DNA from: a virus
Strand: one strand, 5' to 3'
DNA length: 40,754 bases
Virus genome (UHGV): UHGV-1474357
Shown here: positions 7,238 through 34,048 of the stretch, piece by piece
How positions within the stretch are numbered: the stretch's first letter is position 1
Layout of the letters: every line of letters starts with the position of its first letter
Notes under the pieces: generated by a model
Databases searched by the model: none
Seen by the model: only the letters and a program-made list of their open reading frames with translations
Told to the model about the DNA's origin: nothing
Program-made: the position numbers and the translations under genes

Positions 7238-8071
7238 ATGAGCAGACATGCAACAGATTGGGCCTGGGAGACAGATCCAGGTAGCTCATCATTAAAGCTC
7301 ATACTGCTCTCGATGGCTGACAGAGCCGATGAATATAACCTCTGCTACCCCAGCATAGAACGCCTCGTTAAAGACACTTGCCTGAATAAAAAAACCGTGC
7401 AGGCCGGGCTTATATCGCTCATGAAAATGGGGCTTATTTCAGATACCGGAGAGAGAAAGGGAGCGACAAAAAGAGTGCGGGTTTTCTCTCTTAATATAAC
7501 CAAAAACGGGAACATTAAAGGCAACCGGGAGGGGGGCAATGAACCCGAAAACGGTAATGTTACCGAAAACGGGAATATACCCAAAAACGGGATGTTGAAT
7601 GATCCCAAAAACGGGATGTTGAATGATCCCAAAAACGGGATCCAGAACCAGTCATATAACCAGTCATTTAACCAAGAGAGGGAGAGCAGGACAAAAACCG
7701 GGGATTCTGTTCCTCATGACCCCGGCGCAAACAACGCCGTGATGAATAACTTTGTTCCTCCTGGTGGGCCAGGGCAATTAGGTAAATTTGTCATGCATGA
7801 ACAATGGCAGCCATCAGATGACTTTCTTCGGAAAAGCTCATTGCAGGGAATCTACCTGGACAGTCTGCCAACGGCACAGGAACTTGCAGAGTTCAGAATT
7901 TACTGGATGGCTGAGGGTAAGGCATACCATCAGGCACAGTGGGAGCAGAAGCTGGCAAGGCGCATCCAGTTCTGTAGACAGAAATCAGGTGAAGTCAGAA
8001 AGAGCCTTGACTGGCATAACACTGACTGGATAGATGAGGTGTGGGATGAAATCAACTCCAGAACTTCTTAA
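7238..8071 (+). CDS. Replication initiation protein (O-like; N-terminal winged-helix, C-terminal DnaT-like region)
   Basis: N-terminus ATDWAWETDPGSSSLKLILLSMADRADEYNLCYPSIERL resembles phage replication-protein HTH; internal peptide repeats (PKNGMLND) coincide with DNA iterons; followed by P-like gene. Confidence 0.7.
   Translation: MSRHATDWAWETDPGSSSLKLILLSMADRADEYNLCYPSIERLVKDTCLNKKTVQAGLISLMKMGLISDTGERKGATKRVRVFSLNITKNGNIKGNREGGNEPENGNVTENGNIPKNGMLNDPKNGMLNDPKNGIQNQSYNQSFNQERESRTKTGDSVPHDPGANNAVMNNFVPPGGPGQLGKFVMHEQWQPSDDFLRKSSLQGIYLDSLPTAQELAEFRIYWMAEGKAYHQAQWEQKLARRIQFCRQKSGEVRKSLDWHNTDWIDEVWDEINSRTS
7500..7643. repeat. Iteron array (6 copies of CC(C)RAAAACGGRA, last three on a 24-bp period), putative origin of replication
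   Basis: Copies at 7500, 7544, 7563, 7580, 7604, 7628; embedded in the initiator gene as in lambda ori; adjacent inverted repeat GAGAGAGAAA / TTTCTCTCT at 7449-7491. Confidence 0.6.
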
Positions 8072-14936: not shown

Positions 14937-14986
14937 TCCGCTGGTGGGGATAATGTCGTTGATATCCTCTGATGAGGATAAAACAA

Positions 14987-15010
14987 AGCCAGCTCATCGG
15001 CTGGCTGTTT
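14987..15010 (+). terminator. Hairpin with short T-run after terminase large subunit
   Basis: AGCCAGC-TCATC-GGCTGGCT followed by GTTT; weak T-run. Confidence 0.4.
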
Positions 15011-15022
15011 GTGACATGTCAC
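15008..15022. repeat. 15-bp repeat TTGTGACATGTCACG (copy 2)
   Basis: Exact match to 12741-12755; lies between convergent terL and the minus-strand orphan gene. Confidence 0.6.
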
Positions 15023-15026
15023 GGTG

Positions 15027-15446
15027 TTACTTAATGGCATTAAATCCAGCGTTGATGGCTTCCGCAATATTGATGGCACTTGTTTTATCGAAGTGCCCAT
15101 TCTGAATAAGCGCCGCATGCAGGCATTGTAACTTCATGTTGTATAAGTGTTCGCTCATGTAATCATTATCACTTTTTGCTTTAGCGTAAACAGCGCGAGA
15201 AATATCAAAAACATCGCCTTTTTCCATTTCAGAACGTTGTGCTGTTATCCAGTCATGGAACGTAACGCTAGTACCATGGTCTTCGCTAAGAGTTAACCCG
15301 GCCAGTCCCTCACTCTGAATTACTTCGTAATGCATTTCATTACCAGCAAAAACGCCATAAAAAATGCAGTCTTCAGCCTGAACGATACGAGAATATTTTA
15401 ATGGCCATTCATTTAGATACTTAGCCAACATATCAATTGTCTTCAT
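15027..15446 (-). CDS. Hypothetical protein (139 aa), orphan minus-strand gene inside the late region
   Basis: Strong SD AAGGTGAG before ATG 15446; opposite orientation to all flanking late genes; no recognised domain. Confidence 0.6.
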   Translation of the reverse strand: MKTIDMLAKYLNEWPLKYSRIVQAEDCIFYGVFAGNEMHYEVIQSEGLAGLTLSEDHGTSVTFHDWITAQRSEMEKGDVFDISRAVYAKAKSDNDYMSEHLYNMKLQCLHAALIQNGHFDKTSAINIAEAINAGFNAIK

Positions 15447-15455
15447 GATCTCACC

Positions 15456-15481
15456 TTAAAAAATGCCCGGCGAACCGGGCG
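15456..15481 (-). terminator. Intrinsic terminator 10 nt upstream of the orphan gene SD
   Basis: Minus-strand hairpin GCCCGG-TTCG-CCGGGC followed by ATTTTTTAA. Confidence 0.55.
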
Positions 15482-15555
15482 AACTGGAAGCAATGAGTTA
15501 TGCCTTCCGTGGCTGTACGGGTTTACAGCATGAAGTCATCGCAATGGCGTCCTGC

Positions 15556-15600
15556 TGTAAAAAGGGCGGTGATAGTCCTTCAAGGGAAACTATCACCGCC
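15556..15600 (-). terminator. Intrinsic terminator downstream of tRNA-Arg
   Basis: 12-bp stem (GGCGGTGATAGT / ACTATCACCGCC) followed on the minus strand by CTTTTTAC. Confidence 0.6.
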
Positions 15601-15643
15601 AAGCACCTGGAACTTCTGGCATCACGGTCCTTAGGCGTGATTC

Positions 15644-15720
15644 TGGCGTGGCATGCAGGATTCGAACCTGCGACCAACCGCTTAGAAGGCGGTTGCTCTG
15701 TCCGACTGAGCTAATGCCAC
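15644..15720 (-). tRNA. tRNA-Arg (anticodon UCU), argU-like, CCA encoded
   Basis: Minus-strand sequence GTGGCAT-TA-GCTC-AGTCGGACA-GAGC-A-ACCGC-CTTCTAA-GCGGT-TGGTC-GCAGG-TTCGAAT-CCTGC-ATGCCAC-G-CCA folds as a canonical cloverleaf with all four stems Watson-Crick paired; anticodon loop CU-UCU-AA. Confidence 0.9.
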
Positions 15721-16042
15721 AACGCTGAGAGCACTTAGCCTGTTAAGGCGCCACACTTTGTCGCGGCTCCATAAATGCTCTCATCGTTGTACCCTCGTCT
15801 CTTCCGAGGTGTCACACCGAATCGCCGGGATGGTGAATCCCCGTGCGCGGAATAAAACCGCTCGACTTGCACATTCCGGCTACCTGGTTCGTTTGCCCGA
15901 GCAAGGGAGGGTGCCCCTTAAACGTATCCAGACAGCTATCGGCGCATGTGCCATACACCGTACTGCTCAAAATAAAAGCTCACCCCACCTGTTCAATTTA
16001 ACGACAAGCCAGTCAGGTTAATAACCGGAATGAACTCTTTGC

Positions 16043-16057
16043 TTACCTGAAGGGTAA
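16043..16057. promoter_or_regulatory. TTACC-N5-GGTAA dyad (TTACCTGAAGGGTAA)
   Basis: Perfect arms; about 90 bp upstream of the small gene preceding the portal. Confidence 0.4.
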
Positions 16058-16147
16058 TAATTCGTGCGTTAAATGTCAACTGTCTACGATAAATAAATCA
16101 TATGTGGTTAAATTGGTAATAATTTAATTGCGTACGGAGTCATTGAT

Positions 16148-24472: not shown

Positions 24473-25047
24473 TGTGCGATCCGGTTATTGCTGGTGGCGC
24501 AATGCTCGCCATGAGTGGCATTCAGGCATACACCCAGTACCAACAGGGAAAGTATGCCTCGAAGGTTGCAGAAGCGAACGCAGATATAGCCACTGCTCAG
24601 GCAAATGATGCAATAAACAGAGGTAACGCTGAAGCTGAGCAACGGCGCAGAGAGACCCGACAGCGGCTTGGTACACAGGCGGCGACAATGGGGGCGACCG
24701 GCGCCGATTTATCTACAGGTAACGCGCTGGATATATTTGGTGACACTGCTCAGTTCGGCGCTCTTGATTCGCTGACGACGGTGAATAACGCGCAACGCGA
24801 GGCTTACGGTTATCAGGTTCAGGCTGCCAACTATAAAGCAGAAGCCAGTTCAGCCCGTAAACAGGGGAATGTGGGAGCAGCAACAACATTGCTCACTGCG
24901 CCTCTGAAGGCATACGGTGCGTACCAGATGTTTGGTGGGACGTGGAGTCCGTTCTCTAAAGGAAGTACATCTAGTGGTGGGACGCCAATGTTATCTAACT
25001 CAGGTTTTATGAATTCTGACTCCCGATTCAAAATAGGAGGTTACTGA
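24472..25047 (+). CDS. Internal virion protein B-like (T7 gp14-like), putative
   Basis: 191 aa, begins MC..., Ala/Gln-rich; size and order match T7 gp14. Confidence 0.55.
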   Translation: MCDPVIAGGAMLAMSGIQAYTQYQQGKYASKVAEANADIATAQANDAINRGNAEAEQRRRETRQRLGTQAATMGATGADLSTGNALDIFGDTAQFGALDSLTTVNNAQREAYGYQVQAANYKAEASSARKQGNVGAATTLLTAPLKAYGAYQMFGGTWSPFSKGSTSSGGTPMLSNSGFMNSDSRFKIGGY

Positions 25048-27794
25048 TGCCTGTTGTTCCTACTACATCCGGACGCCAGGTGCAAAGTCGTGGTGTGCAA
25101 ACCGGTGGTTTTCAAACCTTCGATGTTCCTCAAGCAGGTCAGGTGCTGGCGAATGTCGCAGATCAGTATGCGGTGGCATATGGTGAAGCCAGGCAGAAAG
25201 CGAATGTTGCTATGGCCCAGGAGGCGTTACTGCAATTTAACCAATTTGCAGATGACCAGATTAACAACCCAGAAAATGGGCTGATTTCTAAACAGGGTAA
25301 AAACGCTCTTGGTCAGAGTGACGCTGTTATGAAAAATATGCAGGAAAGGGCTCAGGCATTATTAGGCTCAATTCCTGAAAGTGAGGAAAGGAATAAATTA
25401 TCCTTTCAACTCCAGCAGTCTATGCAGTCTTATTACAATCAGGCACGTCGATATGAAGTTGGGCAGTTTCAGCAATTCCAAGATCAAACGTATTTGTCAG
25501 GAAATGCATTGGCTGTCACTCAGTCTGCGGGGCTATATAGCGATAACCAAGCATTTGTCGATTTAGCCAAGCAGCGATTTGAATCTATTGATCAATACGC
25601 TGATGCGCATGGGCTTCCTGATGAGTGGCGTGTTCAGCAGAAAACTCAGCTCAAGGAACAAATGGGGCAGCAAGCATGGATAGGAAATATCGCTCAAAAA
25701 TACAACGAGTTTCTTCAGGTTAATGGAGAGCCAGGGGATCTTGACGGTGTGAGCCGTGCAATGTCACATGGTAATTCATTGGATGCTCGTGGTTTACGTA
25801 ATAATAATCCTGGTAATATTGAAGCGAGCAAATCTAACCCGTGGGAAGGTCAGATCGGTAGCGATGGACGTTTTGCAACGTTTGCTACCCCTGAGCATGG
25901 AATCCGCGCGTTGGGTAAAAATATGTTGTCTTACCAGCGTCAAGGCTATGACACCGTTAGCGAGATTGTTAATCGTTATGCTCCGGCTAGTGATGGTAAT
26001 AATACTGATGCTTATATTAGGGCATTGTGTGGTGAGCTTGGTGTTGGGGAGAATGATCAGCTTGATATCTCTAACCCAAAGACACTAGCTGCTTTATGTG
26101 CTGGGATTATTAAACACGAAAATGGCAGTATGCCTTATAGCACCGAACAGCTTGAAACTGGTATCTCGGCAGCCCTTGGTCTAACTAACCTTGATTCACC
26201 TAAGCGTTATACGGGCAATGCGGCATTTGATGCTATGAGCCCTCAAATGCAAATACAGGCATTGAGGCAGGCTAATGAGCTGAGAAATCAGTACCGCCAG
26301 CAGTATGCGGACCAGCTTAGCACCGTAGTTAAAGATGCATATTCAGCCCTTGATGAAGGATTGAAACCTGAGCAGTTACCTTCTGAGGACGATTTTATCC
26401 GGGCCAATGGTCCGCGCATTGGCGCTATGAAGTGGAAGGATATGCAGGCGCAGATACAATATGGAGGTGTCATTGGTGCCGCTAAAGACCTCACTCCAGA
26501 AGGACGACAAGACATTCTTGAACGTTTACGTCCACAGGATCCAAACGCTCCTGGATTTGCAGCTAACCAGCAACGCTGGGAGAAAATGCAGGCCAAATTT
26601 AAAGAGATGGATAGGGAGTGGGAGATTCAGCAGGGAAGAAACAGGTTCGTGTCTTCAATGCAAAATAACTTCCCGCTGGACCCGAACGACAAAAACAATC
26701 AGGCAGCGGTAGACCGTTATTTCGCGCAGGATATCGCGCCTTCGTTTTCCATATCTGATCCGCAGAGCATCAATACACTGGTCACCGTCACAACTAAAAG
26801 CGGCATGATACCAACTCAGGTTAAAACAATGCTTAACAGTGGAGCAACATCAAGAGATCCTGCGCTGGTTGTCCCGATGGCAAAATTCTACGGTCAGTTA
26901 TTCGATAATAATCCGGCGGCAGCGGCAACACTTGATAAAAGTACGATGGCATTTTACGGCAAGGTTTACGATTATTCCCGCGCTGGCGTGCCGGAGGATA
27001 AGGCTGTTGATATGGCTTACAGCCAGGTGTTCCAACAGGATGACCGAATGAAACAGATGCTTTCCACTGCCATGCGAGACAAAAAATATGTCGCGGCGAG
27101 GGCAACTGCTGCACAAAATAACGCCAGCAGTCTGACTTCCTTTGGTTCGTGGTCTCCGGATATTACCGATCCAGGAAAATCAAATGCGGCCTATCAGCGA
27201 GATTACCAGACAATTTACGATGCTAACTTTGTACAGACAGGTGGCGATGCAGAACAGGCTGAGAAAATGACCAATGCCATGATCAGAACCACTTGGGGAG
27301 TTTCTACGGTTAATGGCAAAGCAGAGGTTATGAAGTATGCACCTGAGGCATTGTACGGAGTAAATAATGGTGCTGGTAACTGGATACAGGGGCAGTGGGA
27401 GCAGGAAAAACGCGAGCTTAAATCAAAATCCTTTGGCGGTCCTCGCAGTGATACGGACTTAATACTTGTTTCTGATGGCCTTACGGCAAGGGATAGGAGT
27501 TATGCTGTTATGGTTTTACAGCCTGACGCAAACGGAGCGATAGAACCGAGAAATTATATTGGAGAAAATGGTCTCCCTGTTCGTTTCAAGCCGGATCAGC
27601 TGACATCTCCAATGTACAGGCAAACCATTCAGTTCCAGCAACAGCGTGTTGATGAGGCTAGAGTGCGGAGAGAAGGCAATCCGCTGCCGCAGTTCAGCAA
27701 TAAAGATGGATATACTCCTCCAGATCTGACCAAACCATTCGGTTATGGTTCAGCCAATTACCTTCCGAGCAATATATACGCAGGGGGCAAATAA
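25047..27794 (+). CDS. Internal virion/ejection protein C-like (T7 gp15-like), putative
   Basis: 915 aa; synteny and size; contains NNPGNIE...GSDGRFATFATPEHGIRALGKNMLSY segment reminiscent of virion-associated peptidoglycan hydrolase motifs (unverified). Confidence 0.6.
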   Translation: MPVVPTTSGRQVQSRGVQTGGFQTFDVPQAGQVLANVADQYAVAYGEARQKANVAMAQEALLQFNQFADDQINNPENGLISKQGKNALGQSDAVMKNMQERAQALLGSIPESEERNKLSFQLQQSMQSYYNQARRYEVGQFQQFQDQTYLSGNALAVTQSAGLYSDNQAFVDLAKQRFESIDQYADAHGLPDEWRVQQKTQLKEQMGQQAWIGNIAQKYNEFLQVNGEPGDLDGVSRAMSHGNSLDARGLRNNNPGNIEASKSNPWEGQIGSDGRFATFATPEHGIRALGKNMLSYQRQGYDTVSEIVNRYAPASDGNNTDAYIRALCGELGVGENDQLDISNPKTLAALCAGIIKHENGSMPYSTEQLETGISAALGLTNLDSPKRYTGNAAFDAMSPQMQIQALRQANELRNQYRQQYADQLSTVVKDAYSALDEGLKPEQLPSEDDFIRANGPRIGAMKWKDMQAQIQYGGVIGAAKDLTPEGRQDILERLRPQDPNAPGFAANQQRWEKMQAKFKEMDREWEIQQGRNRFVSSMQNNFPLDPNDKNNQAAVDRYFAQDIAPSFSISDPQSINTLVTVTTKSGMIPTQVKTMLNSGATSRDPALVVPMAKFYGQLFDNNPAAAATLDKSTMAFYGKVYDYSRAGVPEDKAVDMAYSQVFQQDDRMKQMLSTAMRDKKYVAARATAAQNNASSLTSFGSWSPDITDPGKSNAAYQRDYQTIYDANFVQTGGDAEQAEKMTNAMIRTTWGVSTVNGKAEVMKYAPEALYGVNNGAGNWIQGQWEQEKRELKSKSFGGPRSDTDLILVSDGLTARDRSYAVMVLQPDANGAIEPRNYIGENGLPVRFKPDQLTSPMYRQTIQFQQQRVDEARVRREGNPLPQFSNKDGYTPPDLTKPFGYGSANYLPSNIYAGGK

Positions 27795-30700
27795 TGCCGA
27801 TATATGAACAGGATCCTAAAGAGTTGCTTGGCGAGGATATTCAGCAAATAGCAGCACCTGATGACAGTAATTTCTATATGGAAACACCTTCTTTGCTTTC
27901 TGCTGTGAACCCATTTACCAGTGATCAACGCGTTCAAAGGTCTAGACAAGCAGCATTTCGTATAGATAACACGCTGGGTAGCTTTATTGCCAGTGCTCCT
28001 TTCAGTCAGTTTGACAGGGTTGAAGGATATAACCCATTTGATAACGATGCAGCAGATATTAAAGGCTATGAAGATTTTGCAGATTCGTTTATCAACTCCG
28101 GTTCGCATGAAGAAACAATGGCAATTAAACATCGAATCGATAAGCAAAGAACAGATAGAGAATATCTATCTGAAATGGGTGGTGCTGGTACTATTTCAAG
28201 CTTAGCAATGGGAATGATAGACCCGGTTAATGTGGCTGCAATGTTCATCCCTGTAGGGGCGGTAGCGCGTGGAGGAAGTATTGCTGAGACGGCAGGGCGT
28301 TTTGCCCTGGCGAATGCTGCTGGTGGGGGAGTATCAGAAGCCGCATTACAGGCCACTCAGGAAGCTCGCTCACCGATGGAGAGCGTATCGAACGTTGTTG
28401 TTGATGCTCTCGTTGGTGGGATCCTTGGTGCTGGTGCACAGCTACTTGCTGGACCTAGCGCGCGCGAGGCAGTGGTTAACTCAGTAGGTAATCATTTGCG
28501 AGGTATGGATTCTCCTCAAAGCATTGGTGCAGCTCAGGTTTTCAATACCACACTCGATCAGGAACAGCTCGCTGGACTTGGACTTGCTAACAAAACGTTG
28601 AGTGTCACTCCTGCTGGCCGCTTGGCGCAATCACCATCTCTTGTCTCCCGTCAGATTAACCAGCAGCTTGCCGAAAATAACTATTTCTTCGCCAAAAATG
28701 ATGAGGGGTTGGCTACGTTTACGGCAGTCGAGACTAAGATTAAGCAATACGACGCCATGCTTTATAAGCAGATGGAAGCCACTCGTGATGCTTATCAGCA
28801 GTACAGCAAATCTGTTAGCGCCCGCGGCGTGAAGAGGATGAACTTTATTGATTTCAATGAAGCTGTTGGCATGGCCATGCGCCGTGGTGATCAGAGTGAT
28901 ATTCCTGAGGTTTCACAAGCAGCCGCCAGAATCCGCCCCATTTTCGAGATCACAAAAGCCCGTATGCAGGAACTGGGGATCCTTCCTGAGGATATCGATG
29001 TCGTGACGGCGAAAAGTTATCTTCCCCGCATTTATAAGTTCGATAAGATACTTTCCGACCGCACTGAATTCAGAGGGCGAATTGCCAACTGGATACAAGG
29101 GATTAGTGCCAAAGGTGCTGACAAGGCAGGTCAGCGAATTGAAAGGATAAATTCATTGCTAAAAACTGCAGAGGAATCGGCACCGCGCGCTGATGCTCTC
29201 GCTAGTGAAATCGCTGAAGCGGAGAAATGGTCTGGTAAAAAAATTCTACTCATGGAAGAACTGGATAAACGAAATAAGCTTATATCTCAGGAGACTGACA
29301 CACAGGCGCGTCTTACAAGAATAGAAAAAGAGTTGGCCGAGACTTCATCAGAAAAACTTCAGGCAAGAATGATGAAAGAAAGCTCTGACCTTAAAACACG
29401 CCTTGATGATATAGCGCAGGCAAAGAGTGAGCTTCCTGTCTATCAGCGCCATATGGAGTTGCTGGATAATCCACGGAAATATCGTTCTGAGCTTCGCCGA
29501 CTGCAAAAACGGGCAAATTCAACCACAAGGCTGAATGCAAGCCGCGAACGAGCACTGAAGCAGATGGAGCCTCTATCCCGAGAGGAAGCAGAGGACGCTG
29601 CTGACGAGATCGTGAATAAAATAATAGGCGCACCTTCCGGGCTTGTACCAGCCGATATTATCCCAGAGAGACTCGTTGGTCGGGCTGGTTTCACTAAAAG
29701 CAGAACGCTGCTTATTCCTGATGAGCGTATAGAAGATTTTCTTGAATCAGATGTTAACTACATCATGGAAAGTTATCTCCGGCAGGTGGCACCAGAAATT
29801 GAGCTGACTGCGCAGTTTGGCCGTAAAGATATGGGGGAGCAAATCCGTCAGGTTAGTGAGGAATATACCCGGCTAATAAAAGAGGCTAAAACACCTAAAC
29901 GACGTGCAGTTCTTGAGAAGCAACGGGAGGCTGATATTAGGGATATTACGGCTATGCGTGATCGACTGCTTGGTACTTACGGTGCACCTCAAGATCCACG
30001 CAGTTTCTTTGTTCGTGCCGGGCGAGTTGCTAGGAATATTAACTTCCTCCGTTTGCTTGGTGGAATGACTGTCTCCGCTGCAACTGATCTGATGCGACCG
30101 ATGATGCAGCATGGCCTGAGAAAATCTCTCGGACCAATGGTAAGCATGCTTAAAAATATGGACTCAGTGAAAATTGCAACCAGGGATTTGCGAGAAATGG
30201 CCGTTGGGCTTGATTATGTCCTGTCTACGCGTACAAAGGCTATAGCGGATCTTACTGACCCCTATAGCCGGAGAAGCGCCGCTGAGCGAGGTCTGAACTG
30301 GATGACGCAGAAATTCGGTAACTGGACGCTGATGAATCAGTGGAACAGCGCACTTAAATCATGGTCTGGGATGATAGTGCAGTCGAGGATACTTGACGCG
30401 GCTCGCCAAGTTTCTGCTGGTGGCACGCTCTCCAAAAGTGAAATGCGGAAGATGGCACAGGTCGGCATCAATGAAGATGTTCTGCGTCGAATCGGGGAGC
30501 AATTCGGGAAGCACGGAGAGGATATGGACGGGCTGTTAACCGGGCATAGTCATCTGTGGGATGACCGTTTCGCTAGAGAGATTTTCCAGTCTGCAGTGCT
30601 GAAAGATGTAGACTCAGTGATTGTAACGCCTGGCGTAGGTGATACACCGCTGTTTTTTAGTAAAGAAGGCTGGAAGATGATCACGCAGTTCAAAACGTTT

Positions 30701-31183
30701 ATCTTCGCACAGCATAACAGGGTGCTGGTATCTGGTATCCAGCAGGGCGATGCTGCATTCTATCTTGGTGCGCTTGGCACGATTGCGCTTGGCTCAATGG
30801 TCTATATGATGAAACAGAAGTTAAGCGGTCGCGATATTGACTACAGCTGGAATAACCTTGTGAAAGAGGGGATCGACCGGGGCGGAATGCTTGGCTGGCT
30901 CTCTGAGCCGCTGAATACCGTTGAGAACATAAGCGGTGGTAGGTTTGGTCTTGGCGCGATGTTTGGTGCGCCTCCGGTATCAAGGTTTCAGAGTCGTAAT
31001 GCTATTGGTGCTTTACTTGGTCCTACCTTTGATCTTGGCGGTGATGCCGCGACGGTTGCGAATGGTGTACTTAACGGAGAATTTGACAGCCAGCAAACCC
31101 ACGCGGTCCGTAAAATGCTACCTTTTCAGAACCTGTGGGCGATATCACCATTACTAAATAAAGTTGAAGAGCAGATGAAATAG
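27794..31183 (+). CDS. Internal virion/ejection protein D-like (T7 gp16-like), putative
   Basis: 1129 aa; synteny and size; hydrophobic segment near C-terminus (AFYLGALGTIALGSMVYMM). Confidence 0.6.
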   Translation: MPIYEQDPKELLGEDIQQIAAPDDSNFYMETPSLLSAVNPFTSDQRVQRSRQAAFRIDNTLGSFIASAPFSQFDRVEGYNPFDNDAADIKGYEDFADSFINSGSHEETMAIKHRIDKQRTDREYLSEMGGAGTISSLAMGMIDPVNVAAMFIPVGAVARGGSIAETAGRFALANAAGGGVSEAALQATQEARSPMESVSNVVVDALVGGILGAGAQLLAGPSAREAVVNSVGNHLRGMDSPQSIGAAQVFNTTLDQEQLAGLGLANKTLSVTPAGRLAQSPSLVSRQINQQLAENNYFFAKNDEGLATFTAVETKIKQYDAMLYKQMEATRDAYQQYSKSVSARGVKRMNFIDFNEAVGMAMRRGDQSDIPEVSQAAARIRPIFEITKARMQELGILPEDIDVVTAKSYLPRIYKFDKILSDRTEFRGRIANWIQGISAKGADKAGQRIERINSLLKTAEESAPRADALASEIAEAEKWSGKKILLMEELDKRNKLISQETDTQARLTRIEKELAETSSEKLQARMMKESSDLKTRLDDIAQAKSELPVYQRHMELLDNPRKYRSELRRLQKRANSTTRLNASRERALKQMEPLSREEAEDAADEIVNKIIGAPSGLVPADIIPERLVGRAGFTKSRTLLIPDERIEDFLESDVNYIMESYLRQVAPEIELTAQFGRKDMGEQIRQVSEEYTRLIKEAKTPKRRAVLEKQREADIRDITAMRDRLLGTYGAPQDPRSFFVRAGRVARNINFLRLLGGMTVSAATDLMRPMMQHGLRKSLGPMVSMLKNMDSVKIATRDLREMAVGLDYVLSTRTKAIADLTDPYSRRSAAERGLNWMTQKFGNWTLMNQWNSALKSWSGMIVQSRILDAARQVSAGGTLSKSEMRKMAQVGINEDVLRRIGEQFGKHGEDMDGLLTGHSHLWDDRFAREIFQSAVLKDVDSVIVTPGVGDTPLFFSKEGWKMITQFKTFIFAQHNRVLVSGIQQGDAAFYLGALGTIALGSMVYMMKQKLSGRDIDYSWNNLVKEGIDRGGMLGWLSEPLNTVENISGGRFGLGAMFGAPPVSRFQSRNAIGALLGPTFDLGGDAATVANGVLNGEFDSQQTHAVRKMLPFQNLWAISPLLNKVEEQMK

Positions 31184-33762: not shown

Positions 33763-33920
33763 GATGGCGTCTCCACTTAGCGAATTACATCACCACCGCT
33801 GAGACCAATCAGATGGTGGTGAACTGAACGGAGTTGGTCTTACCGGCCTAAGTGGTACCGGCGTCCTTTCGGACCCCCATTCAGCCCACCATAATTCTGG
33901 CATGACTGTGCTATACGCAT

Positions 33921-34030
33921 AAAAAAACCACGTCTGGCGTGGTATGCGCCACTTAGTAATCCGGGAGACCAATCCCGGCACTGGATTTTGCCAGTGCCCG
34001 ATTACTATGGCACAAGAGGAGTGCAATGTA
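33921..34030 (-). ncRNA. Candidate structured leader / small RNA with intrinsic terminator upstream of antirepressor gene
   Basis: Minus-strand hairpins GGCACTGG-CAAAAT-CCAGTGCC and CCGGGA-TTGGTC-TCCCGG, then terminator ACCACGCC-AGA-CGTGGT plus TTTTTTT (33921-33943); promoter-like TTGATT / TTATCA hexamers at about 34081-34049 and a dyad operator at 34034-34048; no credible ORF. Confidence 0.3.
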
Positions 34031-34033
34031 AAT

Positions 34034-34048
34034 TTACCGCAAAGGTAA
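34034..34048. promoter_or_regulatory. TTACC-N5-GGTAA dyad (TTACCGCAAAGGTAA)
   Basis: Perfect arms; directly abuts the -10-like hexamer of the putative leftward ant promoter. Confidence 0.45.

Follow-up and report, generated by a model that had tools for sequence, protein, structure and literature searches.

We found that the 40,754-nucleotide (nt) viral genome UHGV-1474357 (hereafter the window) carries, in a minus-strand block between its terminase and portal genes, a widespread, unannotated and previously overlooked structured RNA of about 243 nt (15963–15721), together with a dedicated terminator partner, T1, behind an early phage promoter. The 3′ end of the RNA abuts the 5′ end of a tRNA-Arg(UCU) gene with no spacer, and the tRNA is followed by T1, a second intrinsic terminator (T2), a promoterless open reading frame of 139 amino acids (ORF139) and a third terminator (T3). 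A preliminary description of the region had listed the 139-amino acid gene, the tRNA, T1 and T2, all of which exist at the coordinates given below. These features are real but individually ordinary, and the tRNA is already annotated in several relatives. That description missed an operator-covered promoter about 600 nt upstream, the structured RNA, and the fact that T1 travels with this RNA in unrelated phages; T3, which lies past the 3′ end of ORF139, was also absent from its list. We regard this RNA with its terminator as a candidate for a new element of RNA-based termination control, and one that can be tested. Its parts occur in the following order:

16051–16079, minus strand: sigma-70 promoter, with −35 TTGACA (16079–16074), a 17-nt spacer and −10 TACCCT (16056–16051), from reading of the sequence.
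16043–16057, no strand: palindromic operator TTACCTGAAGGGTAA, overlapping the −10 hexamer, from motif counts and the annotation of phage epsilon15.
15964–16044, minus strand: putative leader of about 80 nt, from the probable transcription start to the structured RNA, placed by the position of the promoter.
15789–15963, minus strand: core of the RNA, helices P1–P5 and a pseudoknot between the P4 loop (CACC) and GGUG, from a covariance model and covariation.
15866–15884, minus strand: invariant 19-mer GGUAGCCGGAAUGUGCAAG in the junction after P2, from the alignment.
15721–15788, minus strand: P6, which pairs CAACGAUGAGAGCA with UGCUCUCAGCGUUG in a 14-bp stem, carries a variable apical insert and abuts position +1 of the tRNA at its 3′ end, from the alignment.
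15644–15720, minus strand: tRNA-Arg(UCU), argU-like, with CCA encoded, from ARAGORN, Rfam and the PGAP annotation of identical copies.
15556–15600, minus strand: T1, a long-stem intrinsic terminator, GGCGGUGAUAG...CUAUCACCGCC and then CUUUUUACA, from a terminator scan and conservation.
15481–15555, minus strand: conserved T1–T2 spacer, ACGCCAUUGCGAUGAC...GCUGUAAACC, from the alignment of relatives.
15458–15480, minus strand: T2, a GC-rich hairpin and U6, the recombination boundary of the cargo slot, from the scan and the divergence of cassettes.
15027–15457, minus strand: Shine–Dalgarno (SD) sequence AAGGUGAG (15457–15450) and ORF139 (15446–15027, phrog_4846), one allele of a variable slot, from the ORF call and PHROGs.
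14987–15006, either strand: T3, a hairpin between the convergent terL gene and ORF139, from the minus-strand scan and the plus-strand annotation of phage phiV10.

The structure of the RNA is supported by covariation. Our alignments span Escherichia, Salmonella, Klebsiella, Enterobacter, Citrobacter, Kosakonia, Kluyvera, Erwinia and others, and they contain invariant single-stranded blocks. One of these is in the 19-mer, which is identical in every copy examined across genera in the BLAST-derived alignment; the six bases at its 5′ end make up the 3′ strand of P2, and the other 13 (CGGAAUGUGCAAG) are unpaired in the model. Among 24 distinct sequences, 96.2% of the cells in the pairing test are paired and 12 of the 33 base pairs show a compensatory change. 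None of 500 shuffles reached these values, and sliding the partner strand gave only 27–45% pairing. The pseudoknot also covaries (CACC/GGUG in 20 sequences, AACC/GGUU in four), whereas a further candidate pseudoknot, between CCUUG in the P2 loop and GCAAG, is invariant on both sides, so that no covariation can be read from it. The stem of P6 is kept despite changes from G-C to A-U among lineages, and its apical insert measures between 40 and 110 nt. With the covariance model, R1, a single copy is detected in the window (140.6 bits, E = 3.6e-44). Several invariant G-U pairs are valid on the minus strand only, the strand of the tRNA, and therefore the RNA is read from that strand; for the same reason we rejected a DNA-level element such as an attachment site or an origin. 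A search of 15721–16147 against Rfam 15 gave no match at the gathering score or at E ≤ 5, and we found no description of the RNA in the literature on Uetakevirus tRNAs, mEp phages, the P1 ban operon or antitermination RNAs. The apical insert of P6 in SPN9TCW, Stx2a_1447 and BUCT554 contains T-arm-like motifs (GGTTCGAATCC, GGTTCAATTCC), and that of BUCT554 also has acceptor-like pairing; these pieces may be remnants of decayed tRNAs or parts of a tRNA-like domain.

The RNA is found well beyond the relatives of this phage. The 241 nt immediately 5′ of the tRNA (15721–15961) are about 81% identical to noncoding DNA of mEp460, cdtI, Ayreon, 2H10 and Stx2c/Stx2a phages, and RNA matches are present in 1843 of 5426 complete Escherichia coli genomes (about a third), including 554 plasmid places, with no PGAP annotation at the matches. 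We took a census of genomic contexts among 107 non-redundant IMG/VR loci, scoring T1 by a regular expression:

Lambdoid: 38 loci; T1 motif in 32; no tRNA.
Uetakevirus-like: 36 loci; T1 motif in 25; tRNA-Arg in 23, tRNA(CAT) in 4, none in 9.
P1-like: 13 loci; T1 motif in 0; tRNA(CAT) in 9, none in 4.
Other: 20 loci; T1 motif in 0 by the regular expression; tRNA(CAT) in 1, none in 19.

The lambdoid carriers (mEp460, Ayreon, Stx2c and Stx2a phages, and the yfdP type) share one arrangement. Along the RNA strand, cI and its terminator come first and OL/PL next; the RNA begins about 35 nt further on and is followed by T1 and then by a second long hairpin bearing a U-run, and yfdP-like early-left genes start 43 nt past that hairpin. 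We did not find an N gene behind PL in these phages, in which the first early-left ORF is YfdP-like and has no arginine-rich N-terminus. In P1-like plasmids the RNA follows tRNA(CAT) at a distance of 15 nt and is itself followed by ban or a toxin gene, without T1. The prophages classed as other again have the RNA after a consensus promoter, followed by a T1 variant that is visible by eye and was missed by the regular expression. T1 persists in the Uetakevirus, lambdoid and other settings, where its flanks are constant (UUGGCGG...CCGCCCUUUUUACA) and its stem covaries through compensatory changes. These comparisons show that RNA plus T1 is a module which has been transferred between unrelated temperate phages and nearly always lies close behind a strong early promoter. 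From these contexts we take the ancestral module to be promoter, RNA and T1, with the tRNA as a passenger placed between the RNA and its terminator. At four of the Uetakevirus-like loci tRNA(CAT) replaces tRNA-Arg(TCT), and the module thus acts as a landing pad for different tRNAs.

If the RNA were instead a 5′ leader serving the maturation or regulation of the adjacent tRNA, its direct contact with the 5′ end of tRNA-Arg, its position 15 nt past tRNA(CAT) in the P1-like plasmids and the T-arm-like pieces within some P6 inserts would all make sense. We think this very improbable, because the RNA stands without a nearby tRNA at all 38 lambdoid loci, at 9 of the 36 Uetakevirus-like loci and at 19 of the 20 others.

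By sequence comparison, the window is a phiV10/epsilon15-like temperate podophage of the genus Uetakevirus. Across the whole 1.7 kb of the region, identity is 95.7% to HEMP4 and 92.1% to PAS61; to phiV10 and the O157 typing phages 9 and 10 it is 98%, but across only 76% of the query, because the ORF139 segment is absent from them. All the relatives compared have the same gene order, from plus-strand terminase genes through the minus-strand block to a 68-amino acid ORF and the portal gene. The order of promoter, RNA, (tRNA), T1, T2 and cargo slot is kept in Uetakevirus phages of E. coli, Salmonella, Klebsiella and Enterobacter; the cargo gene varies between relatives, as in part does the tRNA, and the rest of the layout is constant. 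Since this layout is conserved across the genus, the block is not a recent insertion, and the earlier account of an insertion between terminase and portal is not supported. Among 80 IMG/VR contigs whose portal is 99–100% identical, the distance from the tRNA to the 68-amino acid ORF is constant at 427 nt, and that from the terL stop codon to the tRNA varies from 314 to about 1480 nt. Most of these seemingly empty 427 nt is occupied by the structured RNA.

The promoter upstream of the RNA has a conserved geometry, TTGACA-17-TACC(C/T)T, which is found at 29 of the 36 Uetakevirus-like loci and also in epsilon15; the automated promoter scan had picked a shifted version of it in the window. Judging from its position, transcription probably starts near 16044. 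The palindrome TTACC-N5-GGTAA that overlaps its −10 hexamer occurs 15 times in the window, against 0.68 expected (positions 216, 5768, 5830, 6542, 6590, 6927, 8866, 8928, 12836, 12854, 16043, 33025, 34034, 34127 and 35247), often in pairs 50–90 nt apart, and only the site at 16043 has a perfect TTGACA 17 nt upstream. The 15 palindromes look like operators dispersed over the genome, much as the many C1 operators of P1 are scattered, and the GenBank record of epsilon15 annotates the equivalent operator site as repressor and IHF binding. Because the promoter is covered by an operator and its geometry is conserved, the minus-strand block is presumably an early unit that is silent in the lysogen.

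In T1 the hairpin (15600–15565; about −22 kcal/mol) has a stem of 14 bp and then CTTTTT, and in T2 (15480–15465; about −11 kcal/mol) six GC pairs precede ATTTTTT. Both of these, as well as T3, are predicted intrinsic terminators, with a GC-rich hairpin and an adjoining U-run. The terminator scan gave four sites, against 1.6 ± 1.6 expected from shuffles, so the number of sites alone is weak evidence; the main support for T1 and T2 is their conservation across genera with compensatory stem changes. The T-run of T2 (15463–15458) directly adjoins the SD sequence AAGGTGAG (15457–15450) of ORF139, whose ATG is at 15446. On the minus strand from the tRNA to this ATG, the promoter scan found no sigma-70-like promoter. 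Because none lies between T2 and the start codon in particular, transcription of ORF139 must come through T1 and T2, and here the preliminary description was right.

This argument would fail if a non-consensus or activator-dependent promoter were hidden in the T1–T2 spacer, with T2 serving as an attenuator or stabilizing hairpin in the 5′ untranslated region of ORF139 and the RNA–tRNA unit ending at T1, unrelated to the cargo. A block of the spacer, ACGCCATTGCGATGAC...GCTGTAAACC, is indeed highly conserved from E. coli phages to those of Klebsiella and Salmonella while its neighbors vary. However, neither the scan nor inspection of the spacer revealed a sigma-70 promoter or a sigma-70-like pair of hexamers at legal spacing, three deletion variants that lack the T2-proximal half of the spacer (L002, L053 and L054) keep both this block and an ORF139 homolog, and the spacer is absent from the lambdoid copies. 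We consider a hidden promoter improbable.

The position between T2 and T3 is a site at which unrelated genes are swapped. At least eight unrelated minus-strand genes occupy it in the 80 contigs, and in some phages it is empty. Phage_gp49_66 (PF13876) is the commonest occupant and relatives of ORF139 come second; the others include Tad2-like genes (PF11195), 200–310-amino acid membrane/coiled-coil proteins and several orphans. Every cargo cassette diverges exactly past the T-run of T2. The gp49, ORF139 and several other cassettes have in common an SD sequence right after this T-run and lack a promoter, and many cargo genes begin only 10 nt past T2. Larger cassettes carry their own promoter, which overlaps a TTACCTTnnAGGTA palindrome. 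Since the promoterless cassettes begin right after T2 and the others bring a promoter with them, the promoterless ones depend on transcription from upstream. A similar arrangement is seen at 20 or more of 36 diverse loci, in which a terminator stands 10–60 nt before the next ORF on the same strand, a gap too short for a promoter.

A slot that holds unrelated genes in near-identical phages recalls phage morons and anti-defense hotspots. The ORF139 and gp49 cassettes differ from a classical moron in having no promoter of their own, which other cassettes in the slot do have, and in lying within a repressor-controlled lytic unit instead of being expressed from the prophage. We rejected a prophage-expressed moron as an explanation of the ORF139 cassette, because this cassette brings no promoter with it and an operator covers the one upstream. 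Tad2 (DUF2829) is an anti-Thoeris sponge (bioRxiv 10.1101/2023.05.01.538930), and because Tad2-like genes are found in the slot at two loci (L006 and L017), the slot looks, by position, like an early accessory or anti-defense locus.

We favor, tentatively, a model in which the whole region forms one leftward unit of early transcription that the phage repressor keeps off. Transcription would run from the operator-covered promoter through the leader of about 80 nt, the RNA of about 243 nt, tRNA-Arg(UCU), T1, T2 and the promoterless ORF139 to T3. The RNA would act in cis on the polymerase that makes it, in the manner of the put RNA of phage HK022, so that transcription continues beyond T1 and T2 as far as the cargo gene; the tRNA would be cut from the same transcript, by RNase P at the P6/tRNA junction and then by 3′ processing; and the cargo would be an early accessory gene, possibly for anti-defense. 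Since promoterless genes stand behind strong terminators, and in lambdoid phages an early operon stands behind two terminators without N, antitermination in cis is the most economical reading of the layout, and an RNA-based termination-control module is the probable replacement for the passive read-through proposed earlier. A wider claim, that RNA plus T1 represents a new class of protein-independent termination control, is more tentative still. It would make this a second, unrelated put-like RNA that reprograms E. coli RNA polymerase, one that has spread horizontally among Uetakevirus, N-less lambdoid and other prophages (and, without T1, P1-like plasmids) and serves as a gate for early accessory or anti-defense genes and tRNAs.

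Several points weigh against antitermination. It is deduced from the layout alone. The RNA is not homologous to put, as judged by nhmmer and by the covariance model on the put regions of HK022. Long-stem terminators resist processive antitermination in the conAn system of Bacillus subtilis (PMC10325885), and the stem of T1 is 14 bp. The P1-like plasmids have the RNA without T1 and with no terminator before ban. Lambdoid phages have a single copy of the RNA, with none behind PR. Finally, T1 and its conserved 5′ flank could be simply the end of a stand-alone RNA gene, with which their conservation agrees equally well.

That last possibility, a noncoding RNA gene made up of promoter, RNA (with the tRNA as passenger) and T1, would have the RNA act in trans in early lytic growth for example as a decoy, a sponge or a binder of a conserved host component, with ORF139 transcribed only by leakage. 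In its favor, T1 and its 5′ flank (UGUGUAGUCUUGGCGG) are conserved alongside the RNA across contexts, T1 is strong and has a long stem, the P1-like copies have no terminator to overcome, and an invariant 19-nt segment with 13 nt unpaired in the model is what would be expected of contact with a conserved partner. It fits poorly with the lambdoid prophages, where a terminated RNA gene would separate PL from the early-left operon with no room for another promoter, and with the many cargo genes that start, promoterless, 10 nt past T2; nor did we identify a target in trans. We regard this alternative as a serious rival, somewhat less probable than antitermination in cis.

The antitermination model draws on the likeness of the region to HK022, in which putL lies just downstream of PL and works without protein factors (PMC9378689). 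Both are noncoding RNAs located just behind a repressor-controlled early promoter in a temperate phage without N, and in both cases terminators and then promoterless early genes follow, with no dedicated protein gene evident. Our RNA thus has the position of a put element, being promoter-proximal in an early operon with no N and with terminators downstream. It is three times larger and folded differently (put is about 70 nt long and has two stems; our RNA measures about 175–243 nt and has a pseudoknot besides its five helices), it occurs in one copy per genome whereas HK022 has left and right copies, and its activity is a prediction. Suppression of termination by put acts in cis and depends on the zinc-binding domain of the β′ subunit of RNA polymerase. 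Homology was rejected, since nhmmer gave only a chance 16-mer inside the nun coding region and model R1 found nothing in HK022. By eye the base of P1 (CGGCG/CGUCG) resembles the base of putL stem I, a match too short to count.

The location in the PL leader is shared with the nut sites through which phage lambda N acts. In addition, a 5-bp hairpin with a purine-rich GAAGAGA loop recalls the boxB of nutL (GAAGA), and the 3′ strand of P6 (UGCUCUYW) looks like boxA. In contrast to lambda, the lambdoid carriers have no N-like gene behind PL and the hairpin loop has 7 nt instead of 5. We rejected an rrn or lambda boxA in the P6 strand as a defining feature, because this strand is paired and is changed at three loci (L098, L106 and L120). 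The CI RNA of P4 and the C4 RNA of P1/P7, immunity RNAs that control termination or translation, are likewise structured RNAs from the leader of an early or immunity transcript, and RNase P is the likely processing enzyme here because of the tRNA junction. The difference is that the Rfam C4 clan has no match in the RNA region and that we identified no complementary target repeats.

To our knowledge, HK022 put is still almost the sole well-studied example of an RNA that by itself renders bacterial RNA polymerase able to resist terminators. If our model is right, the RNA described here would be a second such element, structurally unrelated and far more widespread, and would offer a new handle on the control of elongation by nascent RNA as well as a compact part for synthetic biology. 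It would also explain how the early-left operon is expressed in lambdoid prophages without N behind PL, including Stx2c- and Stx2a-converting phages. Even if it acts in trans, it is a highly conserved, unannotated noncoding RNA of about a third of complete E. coli genomes that public records overlay with probably spurious coding sequences. The variable slot, for its part, is a practical place in which to find early phage accessory or anti-defense genes, ORF139 being one candidate.

The tRNA is the only one that ARAGORN finds in the whole window, called as tRNA-Arg(TCT), and it scores 73.3 bits against the Rfam tRNA model (gathering score 29), which bears out its earlier identification as canonical and argU-like. 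It is 84.5% identical to argU of E. coli K-12 over positions 7–77, differing from it in the acceptor stem, and its 3′ end reads ...GCCACGCCA, CCA included. Copies at 95% identity or more are present in about 505 of the 5426 complete E. coli genomes, PGAP labels identical copies as tRNA-Arg, and a tRNA-Arg is already annotated in the O157 typing phages 9 and 10, phiv142-3, SPN9TCW and vB_EcoP_ZX5. As an AGA-reading tRNA it is like other argU-like genes of phages, from which it differs in sitting between a structured RNA and that RNA's terminator. Over 51 mechanically chosen ORFs, the phage uses 7.9 AGA and 6.6 AGG codons per 1000, more than E. coli typically does, with its roughly 2 and 1. The genes richest in AGA are the tailspike gene (17 codons) and the ORFs at 27794–31183 (12), 7238–8071 (8) and 25047–27794 (7). 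ORF139, with a GC content of 0.40, has no AGA and no AGG codons, contrary to the suggestion that the tRNA supports translation of AT-rich cargo; plausibly it helps late and some early genes instead.

These codon counts bear on the alternative drawn from the preliminary description: a moron-like insertion with a codon-supplementing tRNA, in which the upstream noncoding DNA would play no special part and ORF139 would depend on passive and unregulated transcription past two ordinary terminators. The tRNA, the terminators and the missing proximal promoter, all of which we confirmed, are common ground, as is the elevated use of AGA and AGG in the phage. Against it stand the conservation of the layout throughout the genus, the covarying RNA and conserved operator-promoter in seemingly empty DNA, and the lack of AGA and AGG codons in ORF139. 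The parts of that account which concern how the cargo is transcribed and what kind of tRNA this is have survived, and those which concern insertion and help for the cargo have not; as a whole we find it unlikely.

The minus-strand gene at 15027–15446 belongs to phrog_4846, whose function is given as unknown in PHROGs. ORF139 has no sequence match in Pfam, PADLOC or the Protein Data Bank (PDB), and a profile search of 1.84 billion proteins returned 35 representatives, none of them informative. A first AlphaFold2 model had a mean predicted local distance difference test score (pLDDT) of 62 and a second one of 83.8. With the second model, Foldseek found no neighbor in the PDB (best E = 1.7), and in BFVD the neighbors were only unnamed or uncharacterized phage proteins. 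ORF139 was not matched to Tad2 or to any known defense or anti-defense family by sequence or fold, so that its link to them is positional only. Its C-terminal helical hairpin (residues 90–139; window 15027–15176) is a separate module, which is 75–85% identical in proteins with unrelated N-terminal domains (P0092, P0098 and Tyrion gp53) and is also fused to an extra C-terminal domain in two others (P0103 and P0108).

T3 is terminator-like on the minus strand in our scan, yet in the phiV10 record this hairpin figures as a rho-independent terminator of the plus strand. From that annotation, plus-strand late transcripts leaving terL should also stop there, in which case the portal operon and the 68-amino acid ORF need either a start within 16058–16147, where no sigma-70 match was found, or read-through of 1.1 kb of antisense DNA.

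Three coding sequences in public records lie on the tRNA-Arg/T1 region or on the RNA and are probably spurious: PhiV10p04 (phiV10, NC_007804, 2222–2473), mEp460_037 (2430–2798) and SJJBTUD_0037 (Ayreon, 2561–2680). In the stretch of the phiV10 RefSeq record that was examined, no tRNA is listed. The epsilon15 locus (L003, 2200–2330, minus strand) is without the RNA core and the tRNA, which it lost by a deletion between copies of a 13-nt repeat, TTCCCTTGATGCT, located in the apical loop of P2 and the loop of T1. A pyrimidine-rich loop motif, YUCCCUUGA, is common to P2 and T1 and recurs across lineages. Elsewhere in the window, a C4 antisense RNA (33812–33896, minus strand, 61.2 bits) and isrK (33921–33997, minus strand, 67.7 bits) both score above their Rfam gathering scores; these are antisense immunity RNAs of the P1/P7 type, here in a Uetakevirus, with operator palindromes adjacent at 34034 and 34127.

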